From Catajapyx aquilonaris (lineage: Eukaryota): a stretch of DNA of 64,000 nt. Position 1 is the first letter of the stretch. Every line of letters starts with the position of its first letter. The notes under the pieces are model-generated. The model was given only the letters and a program-made list of their open reading frames with translations. It had not been told where the DNA came from and searched no databases. Shown here piece after piece: positions 3,361-9,854 of this stretch. A program made the position numbers and the translations under genes. The stretch is from NCBI GenBank assembly GCA_000934665.2, contig KZ537973.1, forward strand, positions 62,001 through 126,000, given 5' to 3'.

Positions 3361-5627
3361 AATTTAATTATTTATTATCGTTATCTGGAAGCTAGCCCCT
3401 CTCCTCTTGAGGTCTCGAAAAAACGCGAAGCCTATGCGGATATGATGGTCGATATGGATTCTGGTTGGGATTGGGTTTAGGGGGGATTAAAAGTTGAATT
3501 CGTTTATTAACGTTCACCCTCAGTATAACTCACGCATACTCAGTGACCTATGCGTAAAACACTGGAGAACTCGCTACGTTGATTTGATAAAATTGAGTGA
3601 ATCCCTTTTACACCCCCTCCTTCAGCTACACTTTAGGTCTAAATAATAATAATAATTAAAAAAAGAATGTCTCAAGAGAGGAAGGAAACATTATTGTCTG
3701 CAAGTAGTAGTGATGCACCGAACATTATTGTCAGAAGTTTCCATTTCGACGGCTTTACAATGCAACGCGAAGTCATTTTATTTTTTAAAAACACATTTTC
3801 TGAAAACATACATGTATTACACGCACCCTCCCAACTTTTCACAAAGTTAAAACCCAGTTCAGAAGCGTTACCCTGATTTTTATCGACACCGTCTGCAGCC
3901 ATTTCTCACATGATTTTTGCAAAATAATTACACATGAAAGAAGTTTACAAAAAAGGAAAAAAAAAAAGAAAATTGTGGCCCTGCCTTTAAATTATTGTCG
4001 TTAGTTGTATCTGTGGACAAGTTCAAAATGGCAAGTTTTAAAACTGCGTCATTTTTAAACTTGGAAGACGTAGGATTACGAGTTGTGATGTGAAGAGTTT
4101 GATCTCAAAATTCATGACGTACACTCGGTTCCAAGTTGGCAAAATGATGAAAGAAGCAACCAGAGGCACGTGACGTATCTCGCGATCAATTTCTCCAATT
4201 TTTTAACTCTATGATTGCCGCCAAAAATGTTCTCTTTCTACTTAAAACATGCTCTAGTTTACAACACCTCTTAAAACTACACTACTAGCTCAGTAGGTGG
4301 AACATGTTTAGCATATTTTATTTTACATTTTATTTCTTTCATGTGAGAGATAGCCACAGTTCTCAAGATCGTACTTTTTTTTAAAAACCGTGGCTAAAAC
4401 GATATTGTGCGTTGCGGACCACGTGATCGCATGTCATTTTTGCAATGCGTTTATGCGTAATAATTAAAACTTTTAATCTGCCCTTTTGTCTCTCTGGACG
4501 GGGGTCAGTACTTATACTGCATTTTTTTAAACGCTAGCCACATAGCACAGGGAGTTTTCAAACTAATAATAATAATTACCAGAGCGCATTAAGAAGGCTC
4601 CTGCACCGCTAATGAGTATAACATTATTGCTGATTGAGTTGTCAACCATAGTTGGACTCGGTTAAAGGATTGGTCACTAGCATGTTGTGTCAAGTTTTTT
4701 TTTTAATGCAAAAGGCACTGGTTAACTTTTGCAAATACATTTTGCGACCATTCCATTAACAAATTGCCCGGCCCTGGAGACCAACTCAAAAACATAAATA
4801 AATTAATGTGTCTGAACACATTTCTCTTGATAGCTAAAATAGGTTCATAATCACTCTTGCTCAATTTTTTTTTGTTCATGTCCAAGTGTCTTCTGTACAG
4901 GCGTCCAATCACTTTTAGCTCACCATTCACTTTGAAAGGCTGTAATTTCATGGCCTCCTTTAAAAAAAAAAAGATCCCGGTTAACACTTGAGTCTGCTGC
5001 TTATTATTAAGCCAGAGATATTGAGCAATTGGGGATGTTGGCTAGTAAACGTCCCACAGCTTGCGAATGCGCAGGATGAATATTATTTAAATGCTGTTGC
5101 CCACTTTTTAAACACACTTTTTCTTTAAATGCCGGGGGATGTCCACGGGGGGGTTAAAGCACATATATTCAGCTGGAAAGCTGTGATGCCAAGTGATATT
5201 ACATGGTGATTGTCACATGGTTAGATGGAAAGGGCCTAATATTGGATTAATTTGTCAATTTGTTTCTTTTAAAGTATAGCCCTCATATGGCCGTCCACGT
5301 GATATGCTGAGATATGCTCAATATTAGGCGATTGTCCATCACGGCACAAAACGCTGAAATGTGTACTTCAAGGCCGGTTTCATGCAGGTTCAGCGCCAAC
5401 TGGTTAGGGCATGACGCGTAACCCAACTTGGTAAAACCGGACTTTTCGCCCTTTAATTAAATTTTAGAAGGGGAAACTGGGCAACACTACATGACGCCGT
5501 TGGGCCTAGTCGTGTGCCCTGGTACGACATCTGAAGCCTACTCTTTTTTGCCCGGTGCAAAGGAACACAGCAGTGTAACCTCTAGCTCATAACGGCCCCA
5601 CCTACAGACTACACACATGCGTCAGCA

Positions 5628-5633
5628 TTTATT
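5628..5633 (-). terminator. Candidate polyadenylation signal of the sugar transporter gene
   Basis: AATAAA on the minus strand about 450 bp past the stop codon, near where the GC-rich 3' UTR gives way to more AT-rich sequence. Confidence 0.6.
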
Positions 5634-6076
5634 TTAACAAATCACCATGCATTGACCTCGCACAAGAATTTCGTTGTAAACACCAAGTGGCAGCTTATGC
5701 GCGCGTGTATGGTACGTCGACTCTTCCCTTTGTTCACACGAGGTACTCCTTGAAGGTACCAGTCTCAGTGTCCTTGGAGGGAAACGTAATATGCGACATG
5801 TGTATGGGTTGCTGCTGGAACCGCCTGTGAGCAACGACGAGGGGGTCATGTCGGTGTGCGTATGTACACTTGCCGATACAAGAGCGTAGGGCGCATCGCT
5901 TCCGCCGCGCGGGGCCGCGCGAGGTGGAGCAGCCTTCGTCAGGTATAAGGGCTGCTGCAGGCGGCGTCGTGGCGTCACCCTGGCGCGGCGGGATGCAGAA
6001 AGGTTCATACGACGCTGACCCTGTAGGACCGGTTGTGGTCCTGCAGGAGACAGAGGGAGTTGCAGGTGTGCTGTGG

Positions 6077-9000
6077 TCAGGCTAACGTAGCCTTTTGCTC
6101 CATCTCCTCCAGACCTATTCCCTTGGTCTCGGGAACCCACACCACGACGAAGAACAGGCCGATGACCGATATGGCCGAGTAGAGCCAGAAGGCCCCGTAC
6201 AAGCCCAGGGTCAGCCTGAAGTCCACGAAGGTCTTGACCCCGACGAAGGCACAGGCGTAGCTGAAGGAGGTGGCCAGGGCGCCTCCCAGTCCCCGGTGCT
6301 CCAAGGGAAACAGCTCCCCGATCAGCAGCCACGAGATTGGACCAATCCCCAAGGAAAAGGCCAGCGTGAAGACCAGCACGCAGACCAGAGGGATCCAGTC
6401 CAGCTGGGGATGAATCTCCGGGTCCACCATGCGGGAGGACGCCGCCGCGGCAGAAGACACGATGTCCTCGTAGTAGACGAACAGCCCGAATCCGGCCAGG
6501 GCCACGGAGATGAACAGGTTGCTGCCTATCAGCAATGGGATTCGCCCCACGGTGTCGATCAGGAGGCCTGAAGTCAACGCGGCCAGCAGCTGGACGCCCC
6601 CGACGGCCACGGCGGCCCCATGAGGATTCATGCCGCCGAAGGTCTGCCTGAAGATGGGCACCGCGTAGAAGTTGAAGGCGTTTGCCCCTGGAAATGCAAA
6701 TAGCAAGGAAGACGTAGAGTCGCAATACATGCTGACGATGCCACATGACACTGGAACATTGACTGGGAAATGCAAACAGTCGTTTTCAGCACATTTGTAT
6801 TCTGTACCAGTCGAAGCTGTCTCCTGCAGGGGAATTTTTGTCTGCAGAGGTATTTCTGTATTGACATTGACAGTGTCCTTTCGACTACACTTTTTAAAAG
6901 CGATTACGTGTAACAGATACCGCTAATGGAAACCGCTACGACTAACCGATTGCCGTGTACATGTTCCAGTCAACCTTGCAGTGCTGTGCAATCGGATTCC
7001 GTTGAATGTACAGCACAGTACATGCTGTAGTTGATACTGCTTGCTTAAGAGATAGCCGGTTACATGCGCCAAGTCAACCAATCCCAGTGACCAAATTTAG
7101 ATATCACAAGACCGTCTTCAACTATATATACCAAGAGAAAACCTGCTGCAGTACCTGAGAATCGCTGGAAGAACATGAGGCCGCAGGTGATGAGCACCGG
7201 CCGTCCGATCCTGGGTGCCAGATACCGCATCCTCCTGAACCTGAGTCTGATCAGAAGGGGCAGGCCCCGGGGCGGCCCCTCCCTCCCGGCCGCCTCCGCC
7301 TCTGCCGCCAGCGCCTCTGTCTCCGCCTCGTTCTGCGCCTCCTCCTCTGCCTTCTTCTTCCGTATGTTGGACCTCAGGATGCTGAGCTCTGCGCCTATAT
7401 CGGCCTTGGCTCCCCTGAGCCACTGCAGAGACCTGCAGGCCTCCTCGTCCTTGTCCTGCAGCAGAAGGAAGCTGGGCGTCTCCGGGATGGGCAGGACGGC
7501 CACCAGGAGACTCAGAGGGGCCACGGTCGCCACCATGGCCAGCTGCCTCCAGTCCAGATACGCACCGAGAATGAAGCTCATCAGCACACCGACATGACCC
7601 GCGATTTTGGACAGCGCGCTCAGACAGCCCCGGATGTCCGGGTGCGCTATCTCGCTTATGTACACCTGAGAAGGAACGACAGAGGATATATAGTTCCATC
7701 TAGATTGTGCCGGAAGTCGAGACCTGTATACCAACCTGAGAGACCAGTAGAACTAGGGCTGAGCAGAACCCGCCGACGAACGATGTGGCGTAGATCATCT
7801 CGACGCGGTCGGCGAAGATGGTGAACAGCCAGGAGGCCGAGAAAGGAGTGGACACGAGCAGGAGAGTCTTCTTTCGACCCAGTCGCAGGGCCATGGCGCC
7901 CAGGATCCCTCCGAAAAGAGCACCTGAAAGATGAAGCACACGTTATGCGGTTGCTGGTTAAGTAATCAACATAGCCACTTCTTATGTCCAAGCTTTAAAA
8001 GCAGAATTAATTGAGCCTGCAACGCACACTGGGACAGAAGAAGTGGGGTGTATACATCATTACTCCGAGCATGTGCGAGTGACCTCGTTTTGCGCAGAGT
8101 GGCTTTTATCCTGACAGTCGAGAGCCACCCGTGCGACTCAATTGCTCGGAGGGTGGCCTAACTGTCAGGATGAACTCTGGAAACACCGGCCTTTGAAACG
8201 TATTTTATTTTATTTTGCATGTGTCGGTGTCGTACCGAGTAGTGAGAGGCTGGCGACCCATGACCCCTCCTGGTCCGAGACTTTGAAAGTGCCAGTGGAG
8301 GCGTGCTTGGCCTGCTCCTGCAGCGAGGCCAAGGCTGGCGAGCTGTACCCTTTGCCCAGGCCGGCTGCGAACGGACCCAGGGACACGGCCAGAGCTGCCA
8401 GCAACTGCAGGAATAAAAAAGAGAGCCACCAATCAGATGGTCATCAACCAATGAGTGTGTCTGCCTATCCTCCTCTCTTTTTTTCTGGAGCGTGTAACGT
8501 ATCGGACTACAGTGCCCGGGGATCCGCACACTTGTTTGGAGGCAAACTTTTTTGTGTGTGTGTTGTCCACTCGATAAATGCGAGCGTGTCTTTCTATACT
8601 AGGGGATGGTGATATAGGGAAGGGTGGATTACACAGCATCGTTTTTTTTGGGTGTGTTTTAGAGCATGGGTTGCGCTGCACTTGCTGTAAAAAGCACCTT
8701 GTTGTTTGCCACGAGCGTAAGTGGTCGAACGAATTCGTCACTGAGGCTCCTATTCATCTGGTGGGTTGGTTCCATTGTAAAGTGCAATCGAGTGACGTCA
8801 GCAGGTCTTGTTTACATGAAGAGTACAGTGTTATAGGTCAGTGAAAAGTGACTTATATTTGTTTCTCACTGACTCTTATTACAATAATAATAGAGCCGTT
8901 CACACGGCACATATGCTTCTAGATCTGATTATTTTCGGATCACGAAACATTTGCGCCTTGTGAATAGCTTTAATGAGGCATGTAATTATTGCTTTTCTCT

Positions 9001-9854
9001 TAACTGATTGCTGGAGTGAGCAGTGCATAATAGTGCACTCTTGGACTGCGGATACTACATTCACCATTATAAAAGAGTACAGTAATTGAATTTGAATGAC
9101 GGTTTCATTCTTTTGTATTAGTCATATATCAATGTTGATACGACTTGGTTCAGGTGATCCAGACAACTGATAAGTTTATGAACACATTTGTAAAACTGAA
9201 TAATAAAGTACTAATTGACTATTTCGATGATTATGGCAGATCTCTTCACAATCAGATAAAAAGTCGCGTCCTATCTCTGCAACAAAAAATTGTGCCGATT
9301 ACAGCACGTATCAGAGACAGCCTTGAAGGTCAGTAAAGGCCATTGTCAGCAGCAATGAGCTGTCATATCATTTCCAGGAATCTGATCCTGCTATACACAG
9401 AGCCTCCTTAAAGATTAGATCAATTATGTCTTTCTGAGAATTTCAGCGACTCATTTCGTTCCAAGCATCTGGTGGAGGTTATTCTGAGATAACTGTTTTT
9501 GCGCTGAGGTTACGAGAACGTGCAAATATGGAGAGAAGTGTATTGGTAACGTCATCGCACTTTTGTGGCAGTGATGTCATTTGACTTTAGGCTCAAAGTT
9601 TTTCTCATTCACGAGAAGTTCCTTTGATTTGCATGTTCATACCGTAGCATCCTTGCAAAATTATAATATTAGTGTCAAAATTCTGCAAATTATTCCCTAT
9701 TTTTTAAAAAGCAATTGCCATAAGAATAATTATTGTACCATGCAGTACTTGATGGTTAAAATTAAAATGTTTTACAAAGTGTACTGACCTGTGCAAATTG
9801 TCCCTGACCCGTCGGAGGGACCAGTTGCATGTCGTAGGCAGGTATCGTAGCCAT
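6077..9854 (-). CDS. MFS sugar porter, facilitated trehalose transporter Tret1-like / SLC2A8 (GLUT8)-like, about 514 aa, 5 coding exons
   Basis: Exons (minus): 9854-9789, 8404-8236, 7923-7736, 7665-7155, 6687-6077. All introns are GT-AG with compatible phases; total 1545 nt. ATG lies in a strong context (CCGCCATGG) and the protein starts MATIPAYDMQLVPPTGQGQFAQ|LLAALAVSLGPF. Sugar-porter motifs present: LGRKK, YISEIA..IRG, PETP, DTVGR, GPISWLLIGELFP, VPETKG..LEE. Confidence 0.93.

Follow-up and report, generated by a model that had tools for sequence, protein, structure and literature searches.

The sugar transporter gene and its stop codon

The window, by which we mean the whole stretch of 64,000 nucleotides of Catajapyx aquilonaris DNA analysed here, carries on its minus strand a gene for a Tret1-like sugar porter whose reading frame ends in a TGA-C stop at 6079-6077. 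The parts of the gene and the signals at its 3' end are listed below.

9789..9854, minus strand: probable exon 1, tentatively placed; 22 codons, ATG in the context CCGCCATGG, donor CAG/GTCAGT
8236..8404, minus strand: coding exon 2, from tblastn with orthologues; joined frame stop-free
7736..7923, minus strand: coding exon 3, from tblastn with orthologues; joined frame stop-free
7155..7665, minus strand: coding exon 4, from tblastn with orthologues; joined frame stop-free
6077..6687, minus strand: last coding exon up to the first stop, from tblastn with orthologues and a match to Pfam Sugar_tr
6077..6079, minus strand: first stop TGA, in GCC TGA CCACAG; same bases in a second sample
5628..5633, minus strand: first AATAAA after the gene, a possible polyadenylation signal, with further copies at 4334 and 4322

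Joined together, the exons at 8404-8236, 7923-7736, 7665-7155 and 6687-6077 give 492 codons without a stop, to which the tentative exon 1 would add 22; relevant to this exon, the N-termini of the orthologues are weakly conserved and end in Q ahead of a conserved block. The last exon matches Sugar_tr (PF00083) with an E value of 2e-23, and its last helix is followed by the PET[KR]G motif. The protein ends 18 residues from its PETKG motif, as it does in stick insects, a cricket, termites and a mayfly, and 113 of the 120 relatives among the matches listed (255 were found) end 14 to 27 residues from PET[KR]. A separate feature of the protein is an acidic, alanine-rich insertion in its central loop (7260-7350, minus strand), which adds about 30 residues relative to most insect orthologues.

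The region downstream of the coding sequence is single-copy in the genome, and zero differing bases were found in three runs from what is probably the source sample, nor in one run (X5) of a second sample from a different study; the X5 contig spans 5807-6347 without a break and served for base confirmation only. Since orthologues stop at the same place and the second sample carries the same bases, the TGA was taken to be neither a nonsense allele nor an error. In the context of the first stop, the C at +4 and the G at +9 fit the readthrough features reported for Drosophila (PMC13278127), while the A at +5 and the A at -2 are absent.

The candidate 23-codon extension

The features immediately downstream of the first stop are as follows.

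6008..6076, minus strand: candidate readthrough extension of 23 codons; GC1/2/3 0.57/0.39/0.87
6008..6025, minus strand: terminal YRVSVV, whose S-V-V fits the class I PDZ-ligand pattern and which is similar to the six-residue ends of three orthologue tails
6005..6007, minus strand: second stop, TGA-A

As the initial annotation had described, the 23 open codons that follow GCC TGA CCA encode PQHTCNSLCLLQDHNRSYRVSVV and are closed by the TGA at 6007-6005, and 20 of the 23 have G or C at the third position. The composition by codon position matches that of the last exon (0.59/0.43/0.85). When the 69 bases were shuffled, 0.12% of the shuffles without a stop reached a count of 20 or more (p 0.0012), as did 0.3% of 7867 overlapping, stop-free segments of similar GC content elsewhere in the window; both halves of the extension contribute to the signal (10/12 and 10/11), and none of 19 second frames behind the stops of paralogues exceeded a GC3 of 0.64. 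The GC3 measure, used as a single-genome proxy for a coding signature, is thus positive. The synonymous-codon score is much weaker, with a p value of 0.07 from a training set that had exon 2 out of frame. The length of the extension is unremarkable, with 56% of shuffles staying open and second frames of at least 24 codons in 4 of the 19 paralogues; a TGA-C stop was found in only 2 of these 19. Protein searches with the read-through tail returned no protein covering the tail.

Predicted RNA structure

One structural feature lies within the extension.

6021..6046, minus strand: RNA hairpin predicted at +34 to +59, counted from the stop's U; the AG of a cryptic splice acceptor lies in its 5' arm

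Both pairings proposed at the outset, the hairpin CUG-C-AGGACC/ACAACC/GGUCCU-A-CAG (6046-6021) and the pairing of GGUCAG with the CUGACC around the stop, were recovered in the minimum-energy fold. The second of these could presumably not persist while the stop itself is being decoded, and when it is left out the stem is predicted to reach about 6052. The region folds with marginal stability, its z score being -1.76 and 10 of 200 shuffles reaching the same stability; the fold of the 75 bases after the stop has a z score of -2.15. No structure shared with the window hairpin was found among the 11 distant orthologue loci that were folded. The hairpin falls within the zone from -25 to +75 given for Drosophila in PMC13278127. 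A contribution of the hairpin to readthrough would be a tentative proposal, one we would sooner doubt than adopt. At one orthologous locus in metagenome data (L040:1219-1260), a hairpin with a z score of -1.7 begins about 7 bases after TGA-CAA, which is a more classic stimulator position than that of the hairpin in the window.

Orthologues in published candidate tables

The window protein is 60-73% identical to insect and Daphnia proteins, against at most 41% to the paralogues in its own genome. In a quick tree that was midpoint-drawn and in which the paralogues have long branches, one clade (SH-aLRT 99) holds the window protein together with the Anopheles, Bombus and Daphnia proteins and the metagenome loci, with four own-genome paralogues apart; within this tree the window protein groups weakly with springtail-like rows.

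The membership of the Bombus terrestris gene in this orthogroup runs through XM_003395441.3, which we take from the accession offset to be the mRNA of XP_003395489.1, and the ant-like locus L047 supports the link by an identical stop context and a similar tail length. The stop of the Bombus orthologue lies 19 residues from PETKG, in comparison to 18 in the window protein. XM_003395441.3 is a readthrough candidate in Table S21, row 12, of Sun et al. 2021 (PMC7826183), the ninth data row of an apparently score-ordered table of 851 candidates, where it is given with TAG-TATAAG, 352 codons, a PhyloCSF score of 532 and both stops conserved over the whole tree. It resembles the window gene in its orthogroup and in having an in-frame tail with a hydrophobic end, conserved in the case of Bombus, and differs in its TAG-T stop, its 352 codons and its end YKTCYL, the homology of the two tails being undetectable. 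The Anopheles gambiae gene AGAP009274-RA is among the 353 Anopheles readthrough candidates of Jungreis et al. 2016 (PMC5100048, Supplemental Data S1 row 264), with 11 codons, TGA-G, and TGA at every aligned stop, and with PhyloCSF on 21 genomes as its support. Its orthogroup link rests on the source label of P0084 (AGAP009274-like) and on the tree. It shares with the window gene a conserved TGA that has a short in-frame tail behind it, but the stop is TGA-G and the tail 11 codons long; its row lists neither an RNAz structure nor a Drosophila orthologue. For mosquitoes and bumblebees, readthrough of this gene had been predicted earlier. A literature search, with most subscription journals lying outside it, found no paper discussing readthrough of this gene.

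Orthologous loci in metagenomes

A metagenome scan, of which 80 of 102 confirmed loci were kept, gave 30 orthologue-like loci (L021-L050), and 19 non-redundant ones were tallied; L046, which lacks the C-terminal motif, and L050, a shortened locus, were left out of the orthologue tallies. The loci L051-L100, at 30-44% identity, were set aside as non-orthologues, and no relative was found in the scans of genome contigs and viral contigs.

The first stop is preceded by V in 6 of the 19 orthologue loci, mostly copepod-like by our own reading; in 10 of the 19, there is no V before the first stop and no second frame of at least 20 codons that ends in V or L. The thrips-like locus L032 has TAA-CTAG and 40 codons ending in PREVLV, and L040 has TGA-C and 22 codons ending in FREVYV; neither tail shows a GC3 excess (p 0.56 and 0.79, respectively). 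The 40-codon tail of L032 (L032:1043-1168) is loosely like a constitutive proline- and alanine-rich tail of thrips proteins (P0043, P0061, P0126), which suggests that a stop was gained upstream of an older tail. Termite-like tails are 1 to 10 codons long and frameshifted between sequences, and Daphnia-like tails have 3 and 22 codons.

The ant-like loci L047-L049 have the stop TAG-TATAAG followed by 357 open codons with a GC3 excess (p 0.002). The tail peptide has 25 homologues, of which 23 end in an invariant YKTCYL block, so that the Hymenoptera tails diverge throughout yet keep an invariant C-terminal end. An HMM of this end scored below zero against the window tail, and nothing was found with it in the window. 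Fusions of transporter and tail occur in six GenBank-type or unreviewed models, with two different junctions among the four in which the junction was seen; all RefSeq orthologue models seen terminate at the first stop, and the 350-residue wasp/ant/bee tail is absent from the RefSeq transporter models seen. Because conserved residues lie upstream of the commoner predicted acceptor (P0311, P0312, P0319) and L047 has no AG there, readthrough is favoured over splicing for the Hymenoptera tail. As a case for readthrough, the tail of L047 is stronger than the one in the window.

Terminal residues

The class I PDZ-ligand pattern is a C-terminal [ST]-x-[VIL], and GLUT1 carries a C-terminal PDZ ligand. 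Of the PDZ-type tail claimed in the initial annotation, the fit of S-V-V stood and a terminal V or L does recur, but S or T at -2 is not conserved across the orthologue tails: the other tails end in EVLV, EVYV and TCYL, with V, V and C at -2, and S or T at this position is found only in some constitutive ends. The feature common to the tails is instead a terminal V or L with a basic residue at -4. In a post hoc comparison, YRVSVV resembles the three orthologue tail ends with p values of 0.002-0.006, and the ant-like end alone with p 0.016; the six-residue motif was defined after the data were seen, and unrelated frame ends score equally in several 3' regions. Among 4463 frame ends in the window, 5.8% end in V and 3.5% fit [ST]-x-[VLI]. 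A C-terminal valine also serves as an ER-export signal through GRASP55/Sec24, and the known signals, PDZ ligands as well as GRASP55/Sec24 export (PMC11470877), likewise place a terminal valine on the cytoplasmic tail of a membrane protein but are constitutive, whereas here the signal would depend on readthrough.

Splicing and other alternatives

A 16-nt intron had been considered at first to be the sole splice that could remove the stop, and this was not confirmed, the acceptors at 6041 and 5825 having been overlooked. The elements concerned are listed below.

6081..6089, minus strand: weak cryptic 5' splice site TAC/GTTAGC, GT at 6086-6085
6041..6058, minus strand: cryptic 3' splice site, pyrimidine tract (12/14) and CAG
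5734..6081, minus strand: 115-codon frame, shifted by one base, ending in FKEYLV, reachable only by splicing; no Pfam match

With the GT at 6086 as donor and the AG at 6041 or 5825 as acceptor, splicing would take out introns of 46 or 262 nt, remove the stop and enter the shifted frame in phase, so that alternative splicing and not readthrough would make a second C-terminus, one ending in FKEYLV. The acceptor at 6041 with its 12 pyrimidines in 14, the phase of both acceptors with the donor, the CTGAC around the stop, which resembles the branch-point consensus, and the likeness of FKEYLV to the orthologue tail ends (p 0.0012, for one of 22 frame ends examined) are all in its favour. The donor, however, matches the 5' splice-site consensus at 5 of 9 positions, with C at -1, and is weak; introns at positions shared among the paralogues are at least 63 nt long, the only shorter calls in 20 loci being of 38, 52 and 58 nt at unshared and doubtful positions; and the shifted frame scores for the most part as non-coding in its codons and has no family match, while a splice into it would leave the GC3 signal of the original frame unexplained. 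The sole in-phase donor for the frame of YRVSVV, at 6385, would remove transmembrane segments, and the RefSeq models of orthologues that were seen stop, as noted, at the first stop. We regard splicing as improbable.

It is somewhat less improbable, although still unlikely, that the sequence is an ordinary GC-rich 3' UTR in which the open frame, the GC3 and the V end are chance picks from many stops, with readthrough lost or absent here as in the termite-like and Daphnia-like orthologues. The frequency of 23 open codons among shuffles and paralogues, the background rates of frame ends in V and in [ST]-x-[VLI], the codon score of p 0.07 and the many orthologues without a tail speak for this reading, but it has to set aside the GC3 excess (p about 0.001-0.003), the presence of orthologues in two published candidate lists, the rarity of TGA-C among the paralogues and the resemblance of the window tail end to three orthologue tails. 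About equally unlikely is a real readthrough in which docking does not depend on the last residues and the tail alters stability, amount or activity instead; here the tails of 11 to 357 codons without shared sequence, and the minority share of localisation shifts among the Drosophila cases in PMC13278127, speak for it, and they stand against the invariant C-terminal end of the otherwise diverging Hymenoptera tails and the constitutive V at the C-terminus of copepod-like orthologues. Very improbable indeed is that the TGA reflects a base error or a nonsense allele of recent origin, or that it encodes selenocysteine. UGA does serve as the selenocysteine codon, but the same bases were seen in the three source-sample runs and in the run of another study, and orthologues stop at the same position, several of them with TAA or TAG. 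The exclusion of selenocysteine foreseen in the initial annotation was borne out as well: an Rfam search of 4000-6200 found no relevant family and no SECIS family among its 3 weak matches, and two loose SECIS pattern hits do not fold as SECIS-like stems.

Readthrough as the probable explanation

Readthrough, as proposed from the start, is the explanation that holds up best, given that the stop sits where it does in orthologues, that those of Anopheles and Bombus are published PhyloCSF candidates and that the ant-like loci have a conserved 357-codon second frame. From these sequence comparisons, partial readthrough of the UGA-C in the window gene appears quite probable, and readthrough with a trafficking role for the terminal valine is rather favoured, at a lower level of confidence. 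In such a mechanism most ribosomes would terminate at UGA-C, yielding a transporter of about 514 residues, while a fraction would insert an amino acid at the UGA by a near-cognate tRNA and add 23 residues to give a form of about 538. Near-cognate insertions at UGA are typically Trp, Cys or Arg. The long form would have a cytoplasmic tail ending in YRVSVV, whose free terminal valine may direct trafficking, as a ligand either of a PDZ scaffold or of the GRASP/COPII valine-export route. One mRNA would then supply two transporter pools. We infer each of four things here, namely translation past the stop in this species, the residue inserted, the part played by the hairpin and the function in trafficking.

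AQP4 readthrough uses a UGA-CUAG context, which the window stop lacks. Mammalian aquaporin-4 with its AQP4ex/AQP4x form, a membrane transport protein for which a readthrough tail sets anchoring, is a model for the present proposal; it belongs to an unrelated protein family and was shown in knockout mice, in comparison to the sequence-based case made here (PMC6444679).

On a wider scale, it is possible, though we consider it somewhat doubtful, that the transporter of the pancrustacean ancestor depended on a V/L docking signal at its C-terminus; this signal would be constitutive in copepod-like lineages, would lie behind a leaky stop (TGA-C, TAA-CTAG, TAG-T) in several hexapod and other lineages with spacers of about 10 to 357 codons, and would have been lost in termite-like and Daphnia-like ones. 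If this is true, the switch keeps only a six-residue end, aromatic-basic-x-x-x-V/L, while the rest turns over, and such a switch would date back more than 400 million years. It is established that readthrough is abundant in Pancrustacea; for insects the listed candidates number in the hundreds, with a function assigned to few. The orthogroup described here joins two separately published and undiscussed entries, from a mosquito and a bumblebee, and extends them to a distant arthropod; it also puts a testable function on offer, because the valine end is constitutive in some relatives and behind a stop in others. If readthrough with docking is true, termination efficiency could re-route sugar transport within the cell, as with mammalian AQP4ex.

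Further observations at related loci

In Hymenoptera, some annotations make the tail an uncharacterised gene of its own (P0240), and some fuse it to the transporter by predicted introns; the 357-codon tail at L047:2693-3763 has no Pfam match and ends in a C-terminal block of about 28 residues that is invariant in 23 Hymenoptera-like proteins. At L030:1241-1333 the sequence TGA-CCC-TGA-CCC places two stops in leaky context one codon apart, followed by 28 open codons, a pattern that makes double readthrough possible. The second frames of L044:1357-1413 and L045:2454-2504, of 18 and 16 codons, have a GC3 excess (p 0.04 and 0.005, respectively) and no V end, and may possibly reflect readthrough without a valine end.

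Among the paralogues, L003, L005-L008, L010, L011, L013 and L016 (G000:C905) form a tandem sugar-porter cluster, with at least 11 matches on one 55-kb contig stretch and with shared intron positions. A further sugar-porter paralogue match, L012 (G000:C283:601-966), has three internal stops, which would fit either a short intron or a broken gene.
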